A stretch of DNA of 64,000 nt from an uncultured virus (IMG/VR IMGVR_UViG_3300003320_000433) (IMGVR_UViG_3300003320_000433), one strand, 5' to 3'. Shown: positions 10,786 through 49,287, counted from the first letter of the stretch. The notes: generated by a model from the sequence alone, not told the origin. A program made the numbers and translations.

Positions 10786-11022
10786 CTACTTGATGAGCTG
10801 CTTCTCGTCGTTCTCGATGCTCGTGTTGAGAGCACCCATCATCTTCTGGCCGATCTCCGACGCCATGAAGCGCGTCACGACGCCGGACACGGCGACGACG
10901 GAAGCGAGCCAGCCAGCAGCCTCCACGCCGCCGACCTGCTGGACGAGGAGTGGCGCGACGACAGCCGCACCGACGACGACCTGGATGATGGTTCTGACGG
11001 TGACCTTGGTCTTGTGGTTCAT
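10786..11022 (-). CDS. holin
   Basis: 78 aa with two TM segments (RTIIQ...VVTRFMA), directly after the endolysin. Confidence 0.75.
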   Translation of the reverse strand: MNHKTKVTVRTIIQVVVGAAVVAPLLVQQVGGVEAAGWLASVVAVSGVVTRFMASEIGQKMMGALNTSIENDEKQLIK

Positions 11023-11033
11023 GGTGCCTCCTG

Positions 11034-12038
11034 CTAGTCCTTGAGTCGAGCGGCGAGCTTGTCGGCGACCTTCTCGGCGAGCGCGTCCATCTGCGCTTCC
11101 GTGAGGCCCGTGGCCGACATCGAGCCGAGCGCCGACTTGATGTGGGCAGTGTCGTCCAGGAGCGCGGTGAGCTTGGCGAGAGCCTCACGACCGGCGCGGA
11201 CGATGGTGTACAGCGCGTACTTGACGGTCCACGTGCCGTTCTTGATTGTCTTGCCGTCGGCCTCGTAGTAGTCCGGATTGTTGTACGGAGCGGGCTGCGC
11301 GGGGATCTCGTCCGCGTACCAGATGTTGTGGATGTCGTCCTTGCTGAGCGACACGGCGGTGCCACCTCCTGTGTTGTTGTCGGGGGCAGTGCTGGCGTTC
11401 CACTTGCCAGCCGGAAGAGCGAGCGCGGCCTTGACGTCCGAACGGAACTTCGTCATCGTGAAGCCACGCGGATCGATCTTCCAGTTCGACCACTCCAGGT
11501 GGCCGATGGCCGACTTCTCGGTCCATCCGTAGTGGCGCAGGATGGCGACAGTCGCCTTGACCATGGCCACGTACTGCACGAACGGCCAGGGGTCCTTGCC
11601 GTCGCCGAGGTTCTCGCACTCGAAGCCGTAGAAGCAGTCGTTGCCATCGGCTGCACCGGGAGAGCCCTCGTGGTATTCCGTCGCTGTCGGCTTGGTGTCG
11701 TACGACTCGTTGACGACCTGGTTGAGGACGCGCGGGTCGCCTCCGCCTGCATGATTGGCACGTCCCGCACTGCACATCAGGGCTTCGCCAGCCTTGTTGA
11801 TGTACACATGAGCACGTGGCCCAGGCAGGGACGAGTTGCCGTCGTAGACGATGTTGAAGTCGTCATGTCCTGCAGTGTGATGGATGAGAACGCCGTGGAT
11901 CGGGCCGAACGTCTTGCCCGTCTCGTCGTCTCGCTCGTGCGTGGCCCAGCCAGACCGAGGCGTCTTCACGATGACGCCCTCTGCACGCAGCACCGTGACG
12001 AGCGTGCTTGCGCTCATCGGATTCGCCATTCCTGGCAC
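11034..12038 (-). CDS. endolysin, N-acetylmuramoyl-L-alanine amidase
   Basis: LIHHTAG, GRANHAG, YGFECEN, IGHLEW..KIDP (Amidase_2 Zn ligands). Confidence 0.9.
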   Translation of the reverse strand: MPGMANPMSASTLVTVLRAEGVIVKTPRSGWATHERDDETGKTFGPIHGVLIHHTAGHDDFNIVYDGNSSLPGPRAHVYINKAGEALMCSAGRANHAGGGDPRVLNQVVNESYDTKPTATEYHEGSPGAADGNDCFYGFECENLGDGKDPWPFVQYVAMVKATVAILRHYGWTEKSAIGHLEWSNWKIDPRGFTMTKFRSDVKAALALPAGKWNASTAPDNNTGGGTAVSLSKDDIHNIWYADEIPAQPAPYNNPDYYEADGKTIKNGTWTVKYALYTIVRAGREALAKLTALLDDTAHIKSALGSMSATGLTEAQMDALAEKVADKLAARLKD

Positions 12039-36790: not shown

Positions 36791-36994
36791 TCAGCCCCAG
36801 GCCATCGCCCGACGCTCGTCCTCTTCGACCTCCCAGCGGTACTGGTCGTTGGTCTCCAGGTGGCGCTCGTACGCCATCTCTGCGTCGTACTCGGCCTGCG
36901 CATCGCGCATCTCGTACAGCTCACGAGCCGTGAGGAGCTCGGGGTCCCAGAAGATCGGGAGAGGGAAGTTGCGGATCTTGGTGGTCTTGCGCAT
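36791..36994 (-). CDS. hypothetical protein
   Basis: GAGTCCCCAAGGAGG leader and own promoter. Confidence 0.75.
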   Translation of the reverse strand: MRKTTKIRNFPLPIFWDPELLTARELYEMRDAQAEYDAEMAYERHLETNDQYRWEVEEDERRAMAWG

Positions 36995-37017
36995 CTGGTC
37001 CTCCTTGGGGACTCGGC

Positions 37018-37081: not shown

Positions 37082-37282
37082 TTATGCAGGCTGGAAGCCG
37101 GCATCCAGGATGCACTGCGCGTGGCCCGGCAGCGACACCTTGCGCTGCGGGTCGTAGTATTCGGTCGACTCCGCGTCCGCCATCTCGCCGCAGAGGCTGC
37201 AGCAGTCGGGGCACTCGGTCGGCTGCGAACCGTCAACCGGGCAGTAGAGCCGGGCTCCGCACTGGAAGCAGGTCTCGTCCAT
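37082..37282 (-). CDS. small Cys-rich protein
   Basis: CFQC, CPDC, CSLC, HAQC; GAGTCCCCAAGGAGG leader. Confidence 0.7.
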   Translation of the reverse strand: MDETCFQCGARLYCPVDGSQPTECPDCCSLCGEMADAESTEYYDPQRKVSLPGHAQCILDAGFQPA

Positions 37283-37303
37283 TTCGTCCTCCTTGGGGAC
37301 TCG

Positions 37304-40524: not shown

Positions 40525-40858
40525 ATGATGAACTCCGCGAAGACCGCCGAGACCGTCGCCAAGATCGCCCAGTCCGCCGCGCAGACCCTGCTCACCGCTC
40601 AGGCCCGCGTCACNNNNNNNNNNNNNNNNNNNNNNNNNNNNNNNNNNNNNNNNNNNNNNNNNNNNNNNNNNNNNNNNNNNNNNNNNNNNNNNNNNNNNNN
40701 NNNNNNNNNNNNNNNNNNNGTGGCTGGAGGACGCCGAGGAGCAGCTGATCTTCAACTCCGCCCCCGGCTCCACCTCGCAGGTCCAGAACGAGATGGACAA
40801 GGCCGAGCGCAAGGCAATGCAGAACGCCTACAAGGCGCTGAGCCGCTGCAAGGCCTGA
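40525..40858 (+). CDS. hypothetical protein interrupted by an N gap
   Basis: MMNSAKTAE... before the gap and ...WLEDAEEQLIFN...RCKA* after it. Confidence 0.6.
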
Positions 40859-41148: not shown

Positions 41149-41239
41149 GTCTACCTGGTCAAACAAAAGTTCTTGAAGAAAGTTCAAGAATGCCGGCAAG
41201 CCATCTACCAGGACATTCAGCATGTTTGACCAGGTAGAC
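41149..41239. repeat. perfect 17-bp inverted repeat upstream of the ncRNA-A promoter
   Basis: GTCTACCTGGTCAAACA (41149-41165) / TGTTTGACCAGGTAGAC (41223-41239). Confidence 0.8.
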
Positions 41240-41245
41240 GCGGTG

Positions 41246-41286
41246 TTGCCTTTCCTGTGGATATGGAGCATGATAGTTCCTGTAAG
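41246..41286 (+). promoter_or_regulatory. variant promoter driving ncRNA-A
   Basis: TTGCCT-17-CATGAT-7-GTAAG; same hexamers at 45596. Confidence 0.65.
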
Positions 41287-41647
41287 CGAGAGGGCGGCGA
41301 GCGAAGCTCCCGGGACGGCGACTCCAGCCGACGGTCGAGGCTCCACCCGAAGAACGCGAACACCGAGCAAGGCGGCCAGGCGACAGGTCGGTAGCAGCAA
41401 ATGCAGCGTCGGAGACAGGGCACCGACCCTCCACAAGAAAACGGCAGCGAAGGTAGTAGCGCGCAACTCTCCGGGGACGGACGCGCGGCAGGCTAGGGAG
41501 ACACGGAACCAGCCACCGCACGAGAGAACATCCGGAAGGTTGGCAAGGCGTGAGGGCGGAGCGAACGGGCGGAGCGGCTGGTAGGTCCCACCGACGCCCG
41601 AGTAACACAACAAGACGAAACAGCCCCGTCGGGAGACGCTGGCTGTC
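41282..41647 (+). ncRNA. putative structured ncRNA-A (~366 nt, ending at the hammerhead 1 cut)
   Basis: No RBS-led ORF; purine-rich; paralogous to 45632-46077 with compensatory changes. Confidence 0.6.
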
Positions 41648-41676
41648 GGCCGCTGAACGGCGGTCCTGAGGAGTCT
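41613..41676 (+). ncRNA. type II hammerhead ribozyme 1
   Basis: AGAC-GAAA-CAGCC..GGCTG-TC^(41647)-GGCCGCTG..CGGCGGTC-CTGAGGA-GTCT. Confidence 0.92.
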
Positions 41677-41687
41677 CTGGAGGAACG

Positions 41688-41888
41688 ATGTCCATGCGAA
41701 GCCGCAACACCGTGGCCGGTACGACCGACGCGGGGTTGCCCAAGCGGCGCATCAACGGCTCCAACCCGCCCAACAAGCCGGGCACAACGGCCGAGTCCCG
41801 CTCGACCGTGACGGACGGCTCGGTGCTGGAGGGTCCGGGCGATGTGGTCCAGGGTCCGACCAACGGCCCCGACCAGATCAACCGCTGA
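41688..41888 (+). CDS. hypothetical protein (66 aa)
   Basis: GGAGG RBS directly after hammerhead 1; hairpin follows the stop. Confidence 0.6.
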   Translation: MSMRSRNTVAGTTDAGLPKRRINGSNPPNKPGTTAESRSTVTDGSVLEGPGDVVQGPTNGPDQINR

Positions 41889-41959
41889 AGGAAGGCAGCC
41901 GGGGAGTCCAGCGCTCCCCGGCATGCCGGCAACAACTTTAAGAAACTTGCACTGCACAG

Positions 41960-42001
41960 TAGCCATGCCGGCTGCATGTGGAGTATAGTAGTTACTGTAA
42001 G
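41960..42001 (+). promoter_or_regulatory. conserved phage promoter
   Basis: TAGCCA-18-TATAGT-7-GTAAG. Confidence 0.75.
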
Positions 42002-42034
42002 GCCGACCGAACGAGAGTCCCCAAGGAGGACCCC

Positions 42035-42622
42035 ATGGCCCGCAACGAGAACAAGACCCCGAAGAACTACGAGGCGATCGCCGCCAAGGCTCCGACCCAG
42101 CTGCACCAGGACTTCGCCGAGTGGCTGTACCTGCAGACCGGCGTCCGCGTCGACCTGAAGACGGTCCAGCTGGTGACCGTCCTCCGGATGGACTTCCAGG
42201 CCAGCCCCGAGAACCAGGCCAAGCTGGCCGAGCGCAAGGCCAAGGCTGCGGCAGCCAAGAAGGCGTCGGCCGAGCGCAAGAAGGCCAAGCTGGAGAAGAT
42301 GCTGGCCGAGATCAAGGGCGAGACCAAGACCGAGAAGGCCGAGGAGCCTGAGGTCGAGGCTCCGGCCGAGCCGGGTCCGGTCCAGAAGCTGACCGTGGTC
42401 TACACAGGAACCGGCGAGCCCCAGGTCCACAAGTTCGGCTGCGCCGACCTGAAGAAGATGACCAAGGCCAAGGGCTTCTCCAAGGAGACCGCGCAGGTCC
42501 GCAGCCACACCGAGCTGACCCACTTGATCTACTCCGACATGATCGACTCCGGCGAGTCGAGCCTGGAGGACAACTACATGGCCTACGAGGCCAAGCCCTG
42601 CTGCCCCGCGCTGGACAGCTGA
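42035..42622 (+). CDS. KTVQL-family protein, paralog 1
   Basis: PTQLHQDFAEWL..TG..DLKTVQLVTVLRMDFQASPENQA. Confidence 0.8.
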   Translation: MARNENKTPKNYEAIAAKAPTQLHQDFAEWLYLQTGVRVDLKTVQLVTVLRMDFQASPENQAKLAERKAKAAAAKKASAERKKAKLEKMLAEIKGETKTEKAEEPEVEAPAEPGPVQKLTVVYTGTGEPQVHKFGCADLKKMTKAKGFSKETAQVRSHTELTHLIYSDMIDSGESSLEDNYMAYEAKPCCPALDS

Positions 42623-42628
42623 CCAACA

Positions 42629-42702
42629 GGACGAAACGGCCCGGACGCCTCAACCAGAGGCGGACGGGCCGTCTGCGGCTGAGTGGCCGTACTGACGAGT
42701 CC
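42629..42702 (+). ncRNA. type II hammerhead ribozyme 2
   Basis: GGAC-GAAA-CGGCCCG..CGGGCCG-TC^(42673)-TGCGGC..GCCGTA-CTGACGA-GTCC. Confidence 0.93.
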
Positions 42703-42711
42703 CCCAGGAGG

Positions 42712-43035
42712 ATGGTCATGGGTCTGGTTCCGCTGCCGAGCGACGACGAGGTCGTCAAGGCGTGGCGCAATCACGACAAGAACAACTCGCGGACTGCCAA
42801 GTACTTCGGCGTCAACGAGAGCACGATCCGCAAGGTCGTGCAGCGCGCAACTGGCCGGACGCCTCGGCCCTACAAGAGGCTCCCGCTGGGCGGTGCAGCG
42901 CTCTACGGGGCGTTCCTCAAGGAAGGCGGTGACTGCCACTCGGTAGGCCGCCTAGCGCGCTCCTACGGCGTCAAGCCGCAGTCTGTACGTGCGGCGCTCC
43001 GCCGCTATCTCGATCGGGTCGACCCGGTCAACTGA
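42712..43035 (+). CDS. helix-turn-helix DNA-binding protein
   Basis: NSRTAKYFGVNESTIRKVV and VGRLARSYGVKPQSVRAAL (two HTH-like motifs). Confidence 0.7.
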   Translation: MVMGLVPLPSDDEVVKAWRNHDKNNSRTAKYFGVNESTIRKVVQRATGRTPRPYKRLPLGGAALYGAFLKEGGDCHSVGRLARSYGVKPQSVRAALRRYLDRVDPVN

Positions 43036-43055
43036 GTCCCCAAGGAGGACACCCC

Positions 43056-43274
43056 ATGGACAACGACCGCAAGGCTGTGTACGACTACATCATGAACGCG
43101 GACGGCCTCATCAAGATGTCGACGTTCGCGATCTTCGACGGTGTGGTCAACAAGGACTACGTCGTCATCCACAGCGCACCGCCGCGTGTCGTGCGCGAGC
43201 TCGTCGGCTTCTGCAAGATGGTGTCGATGAGCGAGCAGGGCCTGCTGATCCCGCTGACCAAGAAGGAGAGCTAG
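43056..43274 (+). CDS. hypothetical protein
   Basis: GAGTCCCCAAGGAGG leader. Confidence 0.7.
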   Translation: MDNDRKAVYDYIMNADGLIKMSTFAIFDGVVNKDYVVIHSAPPRVVRELVGFCKMVSMSEQGLLIPLTKKES

Positions 43275-43438
43275 TGACACGGGGAACACCGATCCCGCAG
43301 GATCCGAGCGGAGCCCACGAGGCCGCTCCTCCGCCGGAGGCCGACCCGGTCGTCCAGGCGGAGGCACGGGGGCACAGCCCGGCGGATCAGGTCCAGCCGC
43401 CGGACGCGGACGCCATCGACCTCTACGGAGGCATCTGA
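43274..43438 (+). CDS. small hypothetical protein
   Basis: AAGGAG RBS; TAGTG coupling. Confidence 0.5.
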   Translation: MTRGTPIPQDPSGAHEAAPPPEADPVVQAEARGHSPADQVQPPDADAIDLYGGI

Positions 43439-43439
43439 C

Positions 43440-43520
43440 ATGTTCATCCTGGAGATCCTCGCCGAGACGATCGGCGAGTTCATCGGCGCTCTGTTCGGGC
43501 GCAGAAGGAGGCGCAAGTGA
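43440..43520 (+). CDS. 26-aa amphipathic peptide
   Basis: MFILEILAETIGEFIGALFGRRRRRK; GGAGG RBS. Confidence 0.5.
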   Translation: MFILEILAETIGEFIGALFGRRRRRK

Positions 43521-43693
43521 GCGGCGAGACACCGCGTGGCGTGACCGGGCCGGGATACGACGAGCACCAGGCCACGCCGCACAAGGACCACAACCACTCA
43601 GACCACCAGGTTCAGCCGGACAACCAGAACACCGGAACTGCCGGCACGACACATGGCGAGGGTGGACGCCAGCACACGGAGCACGCGCCATGA
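43517..43693 (+). CDS. small His-rich hypothetical protein
   Basis: AAGGAGG RBS; GTGA overlap. Confidence 0.5.
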   Translation: MSGETPRGVTGPGYDEHQATPHKDHNHSDHQVQPDNQNTGTAGTTHGEGGRQHTEHAP

Positions 43694-43833
43694 GTGCGCC
43701 CCAGGTCGTAGAGGTCGACGTCCCCGAGTGGGCCGTCGGCCTCCCTGGCGCACTGGAGCTCTATGCGGCAATCAAGGCTGAGTTCTCGTTCATGAGCGAC
43801 GACTGCATCTGGGAGCTCGTGCGCGACTGGTGA
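43690..43833 (+). CDS. small hypothetical protein
   Basis: ATGA overlap; stops 3 nt before hammerhead 3. Confidence 0.55.
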   Translation: MSAPQVVEVDVPEWAVGLPGALELYAAIKAEFSFMSDDCIWELVRDW

Positions 43834-43836
43834 CAA

Positions 43837-43889
43837 GGACGAAACCTCCGGAAGGAGGTCGGGTGCTGGATGGCACTCCTGATGAGTCC
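43837..43889 (+). ncRNA. type II hammerhead ribozyme 3
   Basis: GGAC-GAAA-CCTCC-GGAA-GGAGG-TC^(43860)-GGGTGC..GCACTC-CTGATGA-GTCC. Confidence 0.95.
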
Positions 43890-43903
43890 CCAAGGAGGAC
43901 ATC

Positions 43904-44137
43904 GTGTCCAGTAGCAGGATCAAGGCAGGGCTGGAGACCCTTGCGCCGTTCCAGGGCACACACATCCGGACCGACGACCGGTCCGAGTTCGTCAGGTTCC
44001 CCAACATGCTCATGGCTGCACAGTTCGTGAAGTACTTCCAGCTTGAGGAAGTCGCCTTCGCCTGTGTAGCGAGCGAGCACGCCGACAGGCGTAGGTTCGA
44101 CGTCCGTGTGGTCGTTGAGCTCGTACGTCGGCGCTGA
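43904..44137 (+). CDS. hypothetical protein
   Basis: CCAAGGAGG RBS fused to hammerhead 3. Confidence 0.65.
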   Translation: MSSSRIKAGLETLAPFQGTHIRTDDRSEFVRFPNMLMAAQFVKYFQLEEVAFACVASEHADRRRFDVRVVVELVRRR

Positions 44138-44156
44138 GGCCCGAAGGAGGCCCAAC

Positions 44157-44552
44157 ATGTACGACCGCAAGCATCGCATCCAGGTGGCGTTCGACGCCGA
44201 GACGGTCGGTGTCCCGCTGGACCCCGAGACGTTCGAGGACCACCTGGAATTCGCAACCGAGTACCAGCTGGCGATGTACCGGCTCGGGTCCAAGTCGAAG
44301 CGCGACGAGACCCGCCCGCACGTCCGCCACGGTCTGGCGTCGCGCTACTCTCTCATGGAGCTCCGCGCGCTGTTTCTGTTCGCCAACGCCGAGCACAAGG
44401 CCGAGATCGCCAAAGGCGGACGACTCAACGAGCTGGAGCGCGGAGAGCTCTGGGTGCAGATCGCCGACGACGGGCTGATCGAGTTCCCCGCCCGTGGCAC
44501 GGCTCCGGTTGCCACGGACAAGTCCATCACGATCAAGTACGACAACAACTAG
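44157..44552 (+). CDS. hypothetical protein
   Basis: AAGGAGG RBS. Confidence 0.7.
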   Translation: MYDRKHRIQVAFDAETVGVPLDPETFEDHLEFATEYQLAMYRLGSKSKRDETRPHVRHGLASRYSLMELRALFLFANAEHKAEIAKGGRLNELERGELWVQIADDGLIEFPARGTAPVATDKSITIKYDNN

Positions 44553-44582
44553 CATCACCAGTCCCCAAGGAGGACAAGCACA

Positions 44583-44930
44583 ATGGCTAAGCGCATCCAG
44601 GTTCGCCCCACGGTCGTCGAGGTGCTGTCGCACAACGTCGGCAAGGTCGTCACGATCAGCGACATCATGTCGCGTCTGCCCAAGGGAGCGCAGCCCGCTT
44701 CCGTCCGCAATGCCGTGCGCTGGCTCATGGACGAGGGCGGCATGTGCATCAGCGTCATCTCTGCCGGCAACAGCTGGCGTCTGGAGTCGCTGGACAACTC
44801 CGGCTTCAGCACCCGCGCCAACCCGGATGCCGGCAAGTCGCTGGTGTTCGAGCTCGTGGGCGAGAAGGAGGACGGCACCCGCGTTGTGCGCGACCCGGAC
44901 GGGAAGCTCTACGACGTAACGCCTCTCTAG
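44583..44930 (+). CDS. putative winged-helix protein
   Basis: GTCCCCAAGGAGG leader; VTISDIMSRL...SVRNAVRWL. Confidence 0.65.
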   Translation: MAKRIQVRPTVVEVLSHNVGKVVTISDIMSRLPKGAQPASVRNAVRWLMDEGGMCISVISAGNSWRLESLDNSGFSTRANPDAGKSLVFELVGEKEDGTRVVRDPDGKLYDVTPL

Positions 44931-45025
44931 CGGCCCTACGCGGCCACGTAACGAACGAACGCGCCCCGGTCAGGCACTCGCCCCGACCGGGGCGTTCCGA
45001 GCCCTTACACGAGCGAAGGACAGGC

Positions 45026-45427
45026 ATGAAGATCAGGAACGTGGCGATGGCCGGGGCAGTGCTGCTCGCGGTCGCTGCATGCGACGCCAATGCACCGGCC
45101 CAGAAGGCGGTCAGCGGCGACCGGGACGACGTCAAGAAGGTGGACGCCGTCAAGGAGAAGAGCCACAAGGAGCTGGCCAGCAGCACGACCTGCACCCGCA
45201 GAGTTGCCGGCAAGTGCAAGGCGACGAAGACGACCAAGACCTGGAAGAAGGTCGTCGACCAGGCCGCCAAGCCCGCGCTGTACTGCGTCGAGCTGGACAA
45301 CGTCAACGGCTCCGCCAAGGACGACGACGTGTGGTACACCACCACCAGCGCTGTCTACTGGAAGGCCGTGGCCAAGCACGAGGGCGATCGCATGAAGTTC
45401 ATGCCGCTCCACGGCGGCTGCTGGTAG
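45026..45427 (+). CDS. predicted lipoprotein
   Basis: MKIRNVAMAGAVLLAVAA-C signal with lipobox. Confidence 0.7.
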   Translation: MKIRNVAMAGAVLLAVAACDANAPAQKAVSGDRDDVKKVDAVKEKSHKELASSTTCTRRVAGKCKATKTTKTWKKVVDQAAKPALYCVELDNVNGSAKDDDVWYTTTSAVYWKAVAKHEGDRMKFMPLHGGCW

Positions 45428-45595
45428 GCCGCAGGCCGGGTGAATCGCCGTTGACGATGTGATTCGCCCGATTCGACCTGATACGCGTCGCACTCATGCC
45501 GGCCTGCGGAAACGTAGAAAGTCGAAAAAAGTTCCAAGAAGTTTGCACATGCCCCTACCTGCGCATTCACCGAGAATGACCAGGTAGGGGCTGAG

Positions 45596-45636
45596 TTGCC
45601 TCCGGCCCAGATCTGGCGCATGATTCTTCCTGTAAG
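45596..45636 (+). promoter_or_regulatory. variant promoter driving ncRNA-B
   Basis: TTGCCT-17-CATGAT-7-GTAAG. Confidence 0.65.
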
Positions 45637-46077
45637 CGAACGAGGGCAGGGAACGAAGCTCCCCAACTGGCCGGTCTGGCCGAGGGTAGAGGTTCCGCCC
45701 GAAGACCGCGAACCCGAGCAGGACAGCCAAGAGAGACGGCTGAGATCGCGCCCCGGAGACGGGCCGCTGACTCTAGACAGGAACCGGACTCCCCAAAACC
45801 GGTAGTTGCGAGCGAAGCGACTGGACTGGCCGAGGACGGGCAGCCGACTCCCACTGCGGGCGTCGGAAGCGCACACATCCGGTTGGTACTGAAAGCTGCT
45901 AGCGAGCGACGGACTCCACCTCTTCAAGCCTGGGTCAAGTGAGACACCCCGCTCGGGGCACCTCTGGCCAGGAAGTCGAAAGGTGGACGGTCTGCCGGCA
46001 ACCGCAACCCTCGAAGCGAGGAGATGCCGGCACGAACAACAAGGACGAAACGAGCCCGCTGGGAAGCGCTGCTCGTA
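45632..46077 (+). ncRNA. putative structured ncRNA-B (~446 nt, ending at the hammerhead 4 cut)
   Basis: No RBS-led ORF; paralogous to 41282-41647. Confidence 0.6.
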
Positions 46078-46106
46078 CGCCGGTGGATGCCGGTGCTGAG
46101 GAGTCC
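46043..46106 (+). ncRNA. type II hammerhead ribozyme 4
   Basis: GGAC-GAAA-CGAGC..GCTCG-TA^(46077)-CGCCGGT..GCCGGTG-CTGAGGA-GTCC. Confidence 0.92.
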
Positions 46107-46119
46107 CCAAGGAGGAACC

Positions 46120-46599
46120 ATGTCCGAGAACACCACCGCCAAGAAGACCTTCGCCGAGCGCGCCGCAGCGGAGCCCACCGAGCTCCACAAGCAGTTCGCG
46201 GCGTGGATCGAGGCGCAGACCGGGATCAAGCCCGACCTCAAGACCGTCCAGCTGGTCACGACCCTGCGGATGGACTTCCAGAAGTCGGACGAGAACCAGG
46301 CCGCGCTGAAGGAGCGCAAGGTCGCCGCCGAGAAGAAGGCGGCGGAGGCGCTGGCCCGGAAGCGGGCCAAGCTGGAGGCGGAGCTCGCCAAGCTCAACGG
46401 GAGCACGGCGAGCGAGGACAAGGCCGACGAGGCGAAGCCCGAGGAGCCCGCTGAGGCCCCGAAGGACGCCTCCGAGCCCACCGCTCAGGCGGAGGGCGAG
46501 AACGCCCCGGAGACGGCCACGGAGGCCGCCGCTGAGGCCAAGACGGACGCGCCCAAGCCGCGTGCCCGCCGCACTCGCCGGACCACCGGCACCAAGTAA
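46120..46599 (+). CDS. KTVQL-family protein, paralog 2
   Basis: PTELHKQFAAWI..TG..DLKTVQLVTTLRMDFQKSDENQA. Confidence 0.8.
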   Translation: MSENTTAKKTFAERAAAEPTELHKQFAAWIEAQTGIKPDLKTVQLVTTLRMDFQKSDENQAALKERKVAAEKKAAEALARKRAKLEAELAKLNGSTASEDKADEAKPEEPAEAPKDASEPTAQAEGENAPETATEAAAEAKTDAPKPRARRTRRTTGTK

Positions 46600-46661
46600 C
46601 ACCCCTGACGCCCCCGGTCGAGTGGCAGCCGCAGAGCACCTCGACCGGGGTGCATGGGTAA

Positions 46662-46725
46662 GGACGAAACCTAGGGCGGCTCGCCGCCCGATGGTCCGGC
46701 GCTGAACGGCGCTGCTGAGGAGTCC
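46662..46725 (+). ncRNA. type II hammerhead ribozyme 5
   Basis: GGAC-GAAA-CC..GGGCGGC/GCCGCCC..GG-TC^(46696)-CGGCGCTG..CGGCGCTG-CTGAGGA-GTCC. Confidence 0.88.
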
Positions 46726-46738
46726 CCAAGGAGGAACC

Positions 46739-47227
46739 ATGCTGGAAGCGTTCGCCCTGTACACCTGGTACGAAGAGGGCGAGGGCCGCGAGTTCGTGGC
46801 GGCGTTCGTGACGAGCCCCACGACCCCCGACCCGCACGGCCGTGCTCACGAGGTGATGCGGCGGATGTCGGCCGACGGAACGCGGGGTGACTGCTTCTCG
46901 GTCGAGAAGCTGGACATCAACATGAGCAACAAGGAGCTCGGCCTCAAGCCGACGATCGACGAGATCGAGACGGACGACTTCCTGGACGCTGTGTACCGCG
47001 AGCTCCTGGAGCATGGCGTCGTACAGCTTCCGCTCTGGATGAACCAGGCCTGGGTCAAGCACGAGATCAAGATGCGGTACAACGACTCCGTGGCACTGAC
47101 CGGGCGTCGGCTGGAGCTCGTGCCCAGGACCGCGCTGACCCGCTCAACGGACGCGGCCGAGTCTGAGGCGTATGATCGGGACGCAGCAGCCGAGGACGCC
47201 GGATTCGTAGAGAGCACCGACGCATGA
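46739..47227 (+). CDS. hypothetical protein
   Basis: CCAAGGAGG RBS fused to hammerhead 5. Confidence 0.75.
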   Translation: MLEAFALYTWYEEGEGREFVAAFVTSPTTPDPHGRAHEVMRRMSADGTRGDCFSVEKLDINMSNKELGLKPTIDEIETDDFLDAVYRELLEHGVVQLPLWMNQAWVKHEIKMRYNDSVALTGRRLELVPRTALTRSTDAAESEAYDRDAAAEDAGFVESTDA

Positions 47228-47319
47228 ACAAGCCTCAGCGCCCCGACCATTCGGGGCTGTGGTTCTGGTTATTAACCATCGCCCTGCTCGCGGCGTACAT
47301 TAAGTCGCAGCGGGGCTGA
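47224..47319 (+). CDS. 31-aa membrane peptide
   Basis: ATGA overlap; GLWFWLLTIALLAAYI. Confidence 0.5.
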   Translation: MNKPQRPDHSGLWFWLLTIALLAAYIKSQRG

Positions 47320-47331
47320 CTCTCCACCCCA

Positions 47332-47405
47332 GGTCGAAACGCTCGTGGCGCGACAGCCGGTCGTGCGCGAGCGTCCGCCGGTATGGTGCCGGTGCTGAAG
47401 AGACC
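47332..47405 (+). ncRNA. type II hammerhead ribozyme 6
   Basis: GGTC-GAAA-CGCTCG..CGAGCG-TC^(47375)-CGCCGGTA..TGCCGGTG-CTGAAGA-GACC. Confidence 0.92.
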
Positions 47406-47421
47406 GTGGAGGTCTGTGCAC

Positions 47422-47706
47422 ATGAAGTTGGACAAGCTGATCGAGGACCTGCTGGCCATCCAGGAGGAACTCCAGGAAGCTGGTGTGGACACGTCTGACA
47501 CGGACGTGCTTGCCGGCATCCAGCCCACGTATCCGCTCACCTCGGTCGTGGTCGGCGTTGTCTCGGGTGAGACGCTGGCTGACGAGTCCGAGAGCGAGCT
47601 CCGAGAGCCGGAGCGCAAGGCCGTCTGGGTCGCCACAGACCAGGTCGGCTCGTGGTCCAACTACAACCCCTACGCCCCGAAGGCGCTCTGGGAGGTGGCC
47701 AGGTGA
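47422..47706 (+). CDS. hypothetical acidic protein
   Basis: GGAGG RBS after hammerhead 6; MKLDKLIEDL...NPYAPKALWE. Confidence 0.75.
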   Translation: MKLDKLIEDLLAIQEELQEAGVDTSDTDVLAGIQPTYPLTSVVVGVVSGETLADESESELREPERKAVWVATDQVGSWSNYNPYAPKALWEVAR

Positions 47707-48020
47707 AACCGGAGATCAGCGTCACCCCGGCTCAGAAGGGGTCGAACTGCTACCTGTGCCACGAGACGGCTGCTGTGTGCTGCCTCCCGCGAGACCTGGA
47801 CGATCCTGACATCACGCCGGAGGCCAACGAGTGGTACGACATGGGCCTGCTCTCGTGCTGGGGCTGCATCCGCAAGATCCTCACCATGCTCATGTCCGAC
47901 CCCAAGCTCCCCGAGCGTGAGGCGGACGCGCTGGAGGAGGATGTGAGAGCGCTCCGACCCGAGCGTCTCGACGAGCTGGAACACAAGATCGACACGGCCA
48001 TCCAGGAACTGGAGAAGTGA
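47703..48020 (+). CDS. hypothetical Cys-motif protein
   Basis: GTGA overlap; CYLC and CWGC. Confidence 0.65.
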   Translation: MKPEISVTPAQKGSNCYLCHETAAVCCLPRDLDDPDITPEANEWYDMGLLSCWGCIRKILTMLMSDPKLPEREADALEEDVRALRPERLDELEHKIDTAIQELEK

Positions 48021-48175
48021 TGGCGAGCTTCACTAAGAACTGGTGGGCTAAGCATGACATGGACCGTGACGGCAAGGGCTGCTTCTTCATCGTCATGGTG
48101 ATAGCAGGAGCGCTCCTGTTCGTCGGCGTCGGACTCGGCATCATCGCCACGGTCGCAGTCGCCAAGCTGTTCTAA
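48020..48175 (+). CDS. small membrane protein
   Basis: TGATG coupling; long hydrophobic C-terminus. Confidence 0.55.
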   Translation: MASFTKNWWAKHDMDRDGKGCFFIVMVIAGALLFVGVGLGIIATVAVAKLF

Positions 48176-48186
48176 TCCTCAGCCTA

Positions 48187-48240
48187 GGACGAAACCTCCG
48201 TGAGGAGGTCCGCCGGTAAGGTACCGGTGCTGACGAGTCC
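48187..48240 (+). ncRNA. type II hammerhead ribozyme 7
   Basis: GGAC-GAAA-CCTCC-GTGA-GGAGG-TC^(48210)-CGCCGGTA..TACCGGTG-CTGACGA-GTCC. Confidence 0.95.
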
Positions 48241-48255
48241 CGAGGAGATTCGCGC

Positions 48256-49287
48256 ATGTCCGAGAGCATCACGAAGAGCAACCCCAAGCTGAAGACCATC
48301 CAGGCCCTGCTCGACAAGGCCAACCGGACCGAGAACCCGGCTGAGCGCGAGACCTTCCTGGAGAAGGCCGAGCAGCTCATGCAGAAGTACGCGATCGACG
48401 CGGCCATGCTGGCCGAGGCGAAGAGGATCGCGGGCGGAAAGCAGGAGATGCCGGAGAAGCGGATGACCACCTTCATGGCGGCCAACGACAAACTCGGCAA
48501 CCAGTGGTACAACCTGATCATCGCCGTGGCAGAGCACTACGACTGCCAGTTCTTCGGCTGGACCTCGGGCAATGGTTGGCTGGTCGGCTTCCCGTCGAAC
48601 ATGGACCTGGTCGAGATGGTCTACACGTCGCTGCAGCTGCAGGCTCTGCAGAAGCTCGACCCCAAGCCCGACAAGCGCAAGTCGTTCGACGAGAACGTCT
48701 ACATCCTGCACGAGGCTGGCATCAAGTGGCGGAACATCGCGCACCTGATGAACAAGGCGTATCACGAGGAGAAGGAGCTGGGTCGCCTGGAGCGTCTCGG
48801 CCTCCCCGAGGACACCGACACCTCCTGGTCCTTCCGCATCCCCGGTGCGGACAGCAGCTGGCAGGAGGTCCCCTGGGAGGTGGACGCTCAGGGCAAGGGC
48901 AAGAAGGACGGTGGCCGTCTGATCCGGGCGTGCAAGCGCTGGTGCTCCGAGATCGGAGAGCCGTACCGGGCCGTGCAGTCGCCGATCACCTTCCAGCGTT
49001 CCTACGCGCAGGGCTTCCTCAACGAGGTTCGCTACCGATTCGCCGCGCTGCGCAAGTATCGCGACGAGCAGGTCAAGGCGACCACGGGTGCTGAGCTGGT
49101 CCTGTTCGACCGCAACAAGCTCGTGCAGGACATGATGGACGAGCTCAAGCGGCTGATGGGGCACAAGGACGGCAAGGGTTACAGGCAGCGGATCGTGGGC
49201 GAGGCGTACGACCGTGGCCGACAGGACGGCCGCACGGCCGATATCGGGCAGGACCGCGTTGGTGGTCGCCGCAAGGAGATCTCATGA
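48256..49287 (+). CDS. DUF2786-like protein
   Basis: TIQALLDKA...ERETFLEKAEQLMQKYAID; FQRSYAQGF. Confidence 0.75.
   Translation: MSESITKSNPKLKTIQALLDKANRTENPAERETFLEKAEQLMQKYAIDAAMLAEAKRIAGGKQEMPEKRMTTFMAANDKLGNQWYNLIIAVAEHYDCQFFGWTSGNGWLVGFPSNMDLVEMVYTSLQLQALQKLDPKPDKRKSFDENVYILHEAGIKWRNIAHLMNKAYHEEKELGRLERLGLPEDTDTSWSFRIPGADSSWQEVPWEVDAQGKGKKDGGRLIRACKRWCSEIGEPYRAVQSPITFQRSYAQGFLNEVRYRFAALRKYRDEQVKATTGAELVLFDRNKLVQDMMDELKRLMGHKDGKGYRQRIVGEAYDRGRQDGRTADIGQDRVGGRRKEIS

Follow-up and report, generated by a model that had tools for sequence, protein, structure and literature searches.

How are the transcripts of a phage processed when RNA motifs of the self-cleaving type stand in front of a whole series of its genes? 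The question is raised by a 64,000-nt stretch of DNA from an uncultured virus (IMG/VR IMGVR_UViG_3300003320_000433), the whole of which is called the window here, in which an initial annotation had proposed seven type II hammerhead ribozymes (HH1 to HH7) between positions 41613 and 48240. Judged from the DNA sequence, the seven elements are likely functional type II hammerheads which are transcribed together with the rightward small-gene region and divide the phage's transcripts. Sequence, fold, synteny and covariation all lend good support to the predicted cutting of these transcripts.

The seven elements all lie on the + strand, and in each copy the same parts follow one another in the order stem II 5' strand, GAAA, stem III hairpin, GUH, stem I hairpin, CUGANGA and stem II 3' strand. 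Reading of the sequence and two descriptors returned every start and every predicted cut site of the initial annotation unchanged. Five elements are intercistronic. HH2 (42629..42702, cut after 42673) begins 6 nt past the stop of the gene at 42035-42622, possesses as stem III a 35-nt hairpin of -30 kcal/mol and is followed by the Shine-Dalgarno (SD) sequence and the ATG (42718) of a helix-turn-helix (HTH) gene. HH3 (43837..43889, cut after 43860) stands upstream of the gene at 43904-44137, HH5 (46662..46725, cut after 46696) upstream of that at 46739-47227, HH6 (47332..47405, cut after 47375) upstream of a gene with its ATG at 47422, and HH7 (48187..48240, cut after 48210) upstream of the 343-aa DUF2786 gene at 48256-49287 and of later genes. 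The placement at gene boundaries, as originally claimed, thus holds for these five, whereas HH1 (41613..41676, cut after 41647) and HH4 (46043..46106, cut after 46077) terminate leaders that are free of open reading frames (ORFs). An SD sequence lies 2 nt past HH1 and belongs to a 66-aa gene (41688-41888); orthologues of this ribozyme were found in six of six relatives. The gene downstream of HH4 is located at 46120-46599.

The conserved core (C3 U4 G5 A6 N7 G8 A9, G12 A13 A14, the pair A15.1-U16.1 and H17) is present in all seven copies of the window. Each of them adopts, as its minimum-free-energy fold, the hammerhead three-way junction, in which stem II is open whereas loops close stems I and III; core and fold bear out the assignment to the type II consensus. 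The variable positions are likewise as previously described: N7 is G, C, U, G, G, A and C from HH1 to HH7, the cleavage triplet is GUC in six copies and GUA in HH4, and stem II reads AGAC/GUCU in HH1, GGUC/GACC in HH6 and GGAC/GUCC in the other five. A strict descriptor that demands uninterrupted helices detected six copies on the + strand of the window and none on the - strand; it overlooked HH5, whose stem III consists of two core-proximal pairs, an internal loop (UA/GAU) and six G-C-rich pairs. An energy-based descriptor recovered all seven on the + strand and again none on the opposite one. On 100 dinucleotide shuffles, searched on both strands, the latter gave a mean of 0.41 matches and a maximum of 3 (no match in 70 shuffles, one in 21, two in 7 and three in 2). 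In this G+C-rich background the folding z-score is -2 or lower in only three of the seven copies, reaching -5.37 in HH2. A covariance model built from the family itself scored the seven copies at 58-80 bits (74.4 for HH1, 80 for HH4 and 58.1 for HH5), values which are circular by construction, such that this test is informative solely on the absence of further copies: with filters off, no further or degenerate copy was found, the next best match in the 64-kb window reaching 15.1 bits. A search permitting one core mismatch revealed no extra compact copies in the window either; its long multi-branched matches were judged spurious.

By sequence the window belongs to a lytic, BN-cluster-like Streptomyces phage. 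A 7.1-kb region has counterparts in Rooney, ShakeNBake, Lizz, PHTowN, Gibson, phiRKBJ001, Dryad and Wentworth, all of them Streptomyces phages, with 81-83% identity across 50-78% of the region, the value for Rooney and ShakeNBake being ~81%. In these eight phages the matches lie on the minus strands at ~52.5-59.9 kb. According to the part of its genome note available to us, phiRKBJ001 is grouped with Wentworth in the lytic BN cluster, and its 69-kb genome is circularly permuted (PMC8852317). For comparison, the homologous 26-kb arms of six relatives were examined alongside the window, giving seven genomes. Related phages, named in the initial annotation as a place to look for the same arrangement, indeed carry it. 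The energy-based descriptor identified 6, 7, 6, 5, 6 and 5 canonical copies in the six relatives, exclusively on the coding strand, and the one-mismatch core search added one copy per relative, located at the HH4 site, resulting in 6-8 copies each at syntenic sites. Among these 41 copies, 35 have the canonical core and six carry U4C at the one site. Altogether the seven genomes contain 48 copies, all on the coding strand, with an identical core in 42 and the same single-base change in the remaining six. The sites of HH1, HH2, HH3, HH4, HH5 and HH7 are filled in all seven genomes, that of HH6 in three, and three genomes possess one more site, ahead of the HTH gene. In five IMG/VR records from the clade the core pattern matched 8, 7, 5, 7 and 7 times, on a single strand each and within 4.6-7 kb, while a reversed control pattern gave no match in the same five records. 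In the GenBank records of the six relatives only coding sequences are annotated in the hammerhead region.

For the analysis of covariation, 41 copies from the window and five relatives, amounting to 37 distinct rows, were aligned with MAFFT, the seven copies of Gibson being excluded as near-copies of those of Rooney. Pairing is retained in 97.8% of 628 helix cells, a figure with some circularity, given that pairing was already a requirement of the descriptor which collected the rows; syntenic-site occupancy and the diversity of pair types are free of this circularity. Changes on both sides occur in 12 of 17 pairs, so the earlier statement that the stems vary but stay paired stands, with the internal loop in stem III of HH5 to be added. 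The covariation score amounts to 0.554 versus 0.141 in shuffles, none of 500 reaching the observed value, and when the partner columns were slid by 1-3 positions pairing fell to 31-47% of cells. The pairs adjacent to the core are intact throughout: in all 37 rows, columns 4/72 are C-G, columns 8/44 are A-U and columns 46/64 form a pair. As given in the part of Perreault 2011 consulted, the acceptance rule there allows no mispair at 10.1-11.1, 1.1-2.1 and 15.1-16.1 (PMC3088659).

The ribozymes are closely fused to the ribosome-binding site (RBS). In 48 of 48 copies an SD sequence (AAGGAGG, GGAGG or GAGGAG) begins 0-3 nt past the stem II 3' strand, and the start codon comes next. The predicted 3' cleavage products of the window would carry 5' untranslated regions (UTRs) of 40-46 nt in the order stem I hairpin, CUGANGA, GUCC, SD. 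The leader motif GAGUCCCCAAGGAGGAC, the source of the stem II 3' strand, also precedes hammerhead-free genes on both strands (42015-42041, 43025-43045 and 44558-44580 on the + strand; 36983-37015 and 37271-37303 on the - strand), and stem II consequently shares sequence with the phage's general translation-initiation motif. The GUCC and GGAC ends of GAGUCCCCAAGGAGGAC could form a small hairpin around the SD sequence. A similar pattern was observed in diverse viral contigs, where an SD sequence lies within 14 nt of 60 of 159 matches as compared to 54 of 730 random 14-mers, indicating that RBS proximity is common for this ribozyme type and not peculiar to this phage.

From these data the following mechanism can be proposed, in which the position of the cut and the chemistry of the ends are those of established hammerhead chemistry. 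Each ribozyme would fold co-transcriptionally and cut after C17 (A17 in HH4). The upstream product would then be capped by the stem III hairpin and carry a terminal 2',3'-cyclic phosphate, the downstream product would begin with a 5'-OH and the stem I hairpin, and the two, joined only by the 4-bp stem II, would separate. In this way the transcription units would fall into pieces of one to six genes, each with hairpin-protected ends and each provided with a standard ribosome-binding leader independent of the upstream sequence. The task of HH1 and HH4 would differ from that of the other five, namely to detach from the first cistron a structured leader of ~330 and ~410 nt, respectively. Attack by RNase E and RNase J, which depends on the 5' end, and attack by 3' exonucleases are slowed by 5'-OH ends and terminal hairpins, and the pieces should thus gain independent stabilities together with a context-free RBS.

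The initial annotation had placed all seven elements within a single early operon. This is not the case: because three promoter-like repeats and three strong hairpins lie inside the hammerhead region, it comprises several transcription units, and the designation 'early' is an inference from position only. The repeats belong to a ten-copy promoter-like family (...TTGCAC..GTAGCCA..ATGGAGTATAGT..TGTAAGG) on the + strand between 37375 and 45639, with copies mostly 330-900 nt apart and each preceding a small gene or a leader, which suggests many separate early transcription starts. Within or next to the hammerhead region, copies on the + strand are found at 41245-41287 (start of leader 1), 41960-42002 (between the HH1 gene and the gene at 42035-42622) and 45595-45637 (start of leader 2). 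The hairpins, on the + strand as well, comprise a 9-bp G+C stem past the HH1 gene (41898..41922), which is terminator-like but without a U tract, a terminator-like 10-bp G+C stem past the gene at 44583-44930 (44962..44994), and an 11-bp G+C stem between the stop of the gene at 46120-46599 and HH5 (46612..46650). With seven ribozymes for ~19 genes, the bounded units are single genes or blocks of at most six genes. A perfect 17-bp inverted repeat with arms 57 nt apart (41149-41239) flanks an A+T-rich stretch upstream of the leader 1 promoter copy, and a related CCCCTACCTG/CAGGTAGGGG pair occupies 45553-45591 upstream of that of leader 2; by sequence both look like operators.

Several observations weigh against transcript division by the seven elements. 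Four of the seven folding z-scores are unremarkable (-0.8 to -1.6), and the pairing figure has the partial circularity mentioned above. The Rfam model Hammerhead_II (RF02276), whose use had been suggested as a check, reported none of the seven copies at its gathering score of 37 bits in a search of the whole window; this score is the threshold of one curated model and not a structural feature. In E-value mode (E <= 10) the same model reported four copies with 32.2, 31.9, 22.1 and 20.6 bits (three end-to-end alignments and one partial) and gave no report for the other three. A tertiary contact is usually required for fast hammerhead cleavage at cellular Mg2+, and in the five copies with a UGRRYG loop no convincing pseudoknot between loop I and the tail (UGG:CCA) was found; loop and tail do not covary. 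Since most HH4 orthologues carry U4C, not every copy need cut fast. Finally, the effects on RNA stability and translation are derived by inference only. As a separate observation, the 7-nt stem I loops UANGGYR of HH6 and HH7 (47373-47405 and 48208-48240) could form a 3-bp pairing with (A/G)CC located 1-2 nt 5' of stem II. In ten copies viewed, and in a comparison without chance control, the pairings were GGU:ACC, GGU:GCC, GGC:GCC and GGUG:CACC with U-A, U-G and C-G variants; loops of the HH6/HH7 type may engage in a 5'-side pseudoknot.

The two leaders deserve a closer description. Leader 1 (41288..41612, + strand, ~330 nt) and leader 2 (45638..46042, + strand, ~410 nt) are ORF-free and extend from a promoter-like repeat to HH1 and HH4, respectively. 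The 5' domain of leader 1 is paralogous to leader 2, with 71% identity over ~248 nt. Leader 2 is highly conserved and apparently structured: the region 45426-46741 exhibits 83-85% identity to the relatives versus 69-73% for the neighbouring genes at 44136-45423, the mean column identity of the leader in six genomes is 88%, and its indels are not multiples of 3. RNAalifold revealed compensatory changes in 10 of 128 pairs for six leader-2 sequences and in 13 of 49 shared pairs for 15 sequences of both leaders, and the loop of a hairpin near 45750-45775 alternates between UUCG, GAGA and GCAA. No Rfam family matched either leader at E <= 10. The ribozymes at the leader ends vary in a manner of their own. 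At the HH4 site one form (GUA with CUGAGGA) occurs in the window and three IMG/VR loci, and another (GUC with CCGAWGA, that is U4C) in six isolates and five IMG/VR loci, corresponding to 11 of 15 genomes. In the U4C orthologues the helices are intact, with compensatory changes in stem III. GUA is also found at HH1 in four of seven genomes, and all sites other than HH1 and HH4 combine GUC with a canonical core. The text on core variation in Perreault 2011, figure 5 apart, does not name U4C as a naturally occurring variant (PMC3088659).

Of 17 proteins of the hammerhead-flanked genes, 13 gave no Pfam or informative PHROG match. The genes at 42035-42622 and 46120-46599 are paralogous (phrog_20596, unknown function), with ~71% DNA identity over 139 nt, and there is one of them per duplicated leader module. 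Between a terminator-like hairpin and the leader 2 promoter copy a 133-aa protein is encoded (45026-45427, phrog_38663), whose N-terminus (MKIRNVAMAGAVLLAVAAC...) is lipoprotein-like. At 40614-40719 a coding region upstream of leader 1 contains a stretch of 106 N, masked or unassembled.

A further feature of the locus is the position of several ribozymes close to cassette boundaries. Similarity blocks shared with the relatives stop 10-16 nt past HH2, HH3, HH5 and HH6 (at 42712, 43900, 46741 and 47417). Rooney, ShakeNBake and Gibson possess an extra gene and an extra hammerhead between HH2 and the HTH gene, which are absent in the window, phiRKBJ001 and Wentworth; this one-gene-plus-one-hammerhead cassette spans 10956-11304 of the arm of one relative (L001), with equivalents in two others, as compared to 42629-42720 in the window. 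HH2 of the window combines stems of the HH2 type with the tail of the relatives' extra copy, and this hybrid composition points to a crossover within the shared CUGACGAGUCC segment, the 3' part of the ribozyme core. This crossover inside the core and the U4C variant at the HH4 orthologue are modestly new details. Among public sequencing runs, one DNA run contains the stretch and is probably its source, which suggests assembly from a metagenome; two RNA runs and the other runs contain small shares of it. Contigs from four public sequencing runs contain relatives that are 90-99% alike, and several of their joints are located at hammerheads (41609>46693, 41641>48207 and 48082>41614); assembly may have jumped between repeats, and nothing was concluded from them.

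Which other explanations account for these observations? HH1 and HH4 might chiefly mature a stand-alone non-coding RNA, the leaders being functional and their 3' ends made by the ribozymes, a reading that is compatible with transcript division by the other five and that we regard as possible, if on balance unlikely. It is suggested by the absence of ORFs, the indels outside multiples of 3, the conservation above that of neighbouring genes and the mutual paralogy of the leaders, by their compensatory changes and the UUCG/GAGA/GCAA loop variation, and by the confinement of GUA triplets and the U4C core to these two sites. However, the leaders have no relatives outside the clade and no Rfam counterpart at the threshold used, their covariation is limited by the closeness of the sequences, and each may be nothing more than an extended regulatory 5' UTR which is cut away. 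The more specific proposal that they represent a new class of hammerhead-released phage non-coding RNA, whose release rate is tuned by the non-optimal GUA or U4C at HH1 and HH4, is accordingly graded as rather doubtful; if true, HH1 and HH4 would be timers that set how long a structured RNA remains attached to the first early message. The U4C and A17 variants at the leader sites and the paralogous leaders that the ribozymes would release are the parts most worth following. Translation switching, in which the uncut fold masks the SD sequence and cleavage frees it, appears improbable. Although HH6 can extend its stem II onto the first SD bases, with a modelled SD-unpaired probability rising from 0.01 to 0.60 on cleavage, and modelled values also rise for HH1, HH2 and HH7, they fall for HH3 (0.59 to 0.29) and HH4 (0.58 to 0.46) and stay flat for HH5, and in most copies the SD sequence lies outside stem II. 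A general SD-unmasking switch was rejected because the modelling is inconsistent across copies.

The borders of the similarity blocks just past HH2, HH3, HH5 and HH6, together with the crossover of the extra cassette placed in CUGACGAGUCC, would also fit a role of the ribozyme-plus-RBS units mainly as recombination joints for the swap, gain and loss of cassettes, with RNA cleavage being secondary. We give this little probability, for it leaves unexplained why an invariant 13-nt catalytic core is kept amid compensatory stem changes, and block ends are expected beside any conserved element anyway. That the seven have lost activity, or serve only as structural punctuation such as hairpins for host RNases or for termination, is very improbable: the sub-threshold Rfam scores and the toleration of U4C at one site would agree with it, but the core is otherwise uniform across the 48 copies while the stems vary freely and nevertheless stay paired. 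Least of all do we expect that circular or spliced RNAs arise by ligation of pieces with a ribozyme on either side. The cut pieces would indeed carry 5'-OH and 2',3'-cyclic-phosphate ends, and the stem II shared by most copies (GGAC/GUCC) could bring these together, but the stem II strands mismatch in pieces bounded by HH1 or HH6, and such products were sought and not found in Perreault 2011, as reported in the part consulted (PMC3088659). The circular-RNA reading was dropped, having found no support in this analysis.

The division of phage transcripts by hammerheads, the preferred reading of the locus, has precedents. The initial annotation had regarded a dense array tied to gene boundaries as undescribed, a claim that has to be withdrawn: in the sections of Perreault 2011 that we could draw on, prophages are described in which single genes or short runs of genes often have multiple hammerheads at their flanks, three tandem arrangements cleaved in vitro and one was active in vivo (PMC3088659). 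Like the present array, those comprise several gene-oriented intergenic hammerheads, type II included, which bound single genes or short blocks, and mRNA processing was proposed for them; the density is three in ~2 kb there and seven in 6.6 kb here. Unlike them, the present array belongs to a lytic BN-cluster Streptomyces phage, every copy is fused to an SD sequence 1-3 nt away and two copies end long structured leaders, features predicted here from the sequence. The same source describes a halovirus hammerhead located 13 nt upstream of the first early gene, with a transcript 5' end mapped within 3 nt of the hammerhead site (PMC3088659). This HHphage of haloviruses HF1/HF2 resembles HH1 and HH4 in that only a few nt separate it from the first gene of the early polycistronic transcript downstream, but it belongs to an archaeal virus, deviates in structure and needs much Mg2+, and a transcript 5' end is mapped next to it, whereas the predicted copies in this phage have a canonical core (U4C in relatives). 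A 2019 review, in the portion seen, calls the processing of polycistronic transcripts by hammerheads 'suggested', with an undefined role and more work needed (PMC6765202). Our literature search found no on-topic paper on hammerheads in Streptomyces phages or on ribozymes in actinobacteriophages, and the accessible part of the phiRKBJ001 genome note makes no mention of a ribozyme or hammerhead (PMC8852317).

The locus thus adds no new category; its value lies in a clean comparative data set and in a natural counterpart of engineered ribozyme insulators. The clade is a tractable test bed, consisting of eight cultured lytic Streptomyces phages with 6-8 syntenic copies in the six relatives compared and a fixed ribozyme-to-RBS spacing, and it offers natural variation in the presence or absence of HH6 and the extra site, in GUC versus GUA and in U4 versus C4. 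The permutation, core and helices of its copies are those of Rfam Hammerhead_II, in whose consensus a UGG in loop I and a GCCA tail form a pseudoknot, whereas in this phage the SD sequence directly follows stem II. RiboJ, a synthetic insulator, was engineered from a satellite-RNA hammerhead. By analogy, the copies of this phage would act as RiboJ does, a self-cleaving ribozyme upstream of the RBS stripping off the upstream RNA and leaving a standard leader headed by a hairpin; RiboJ is not a relative of these copies, and the likeness is one of predicted working only.

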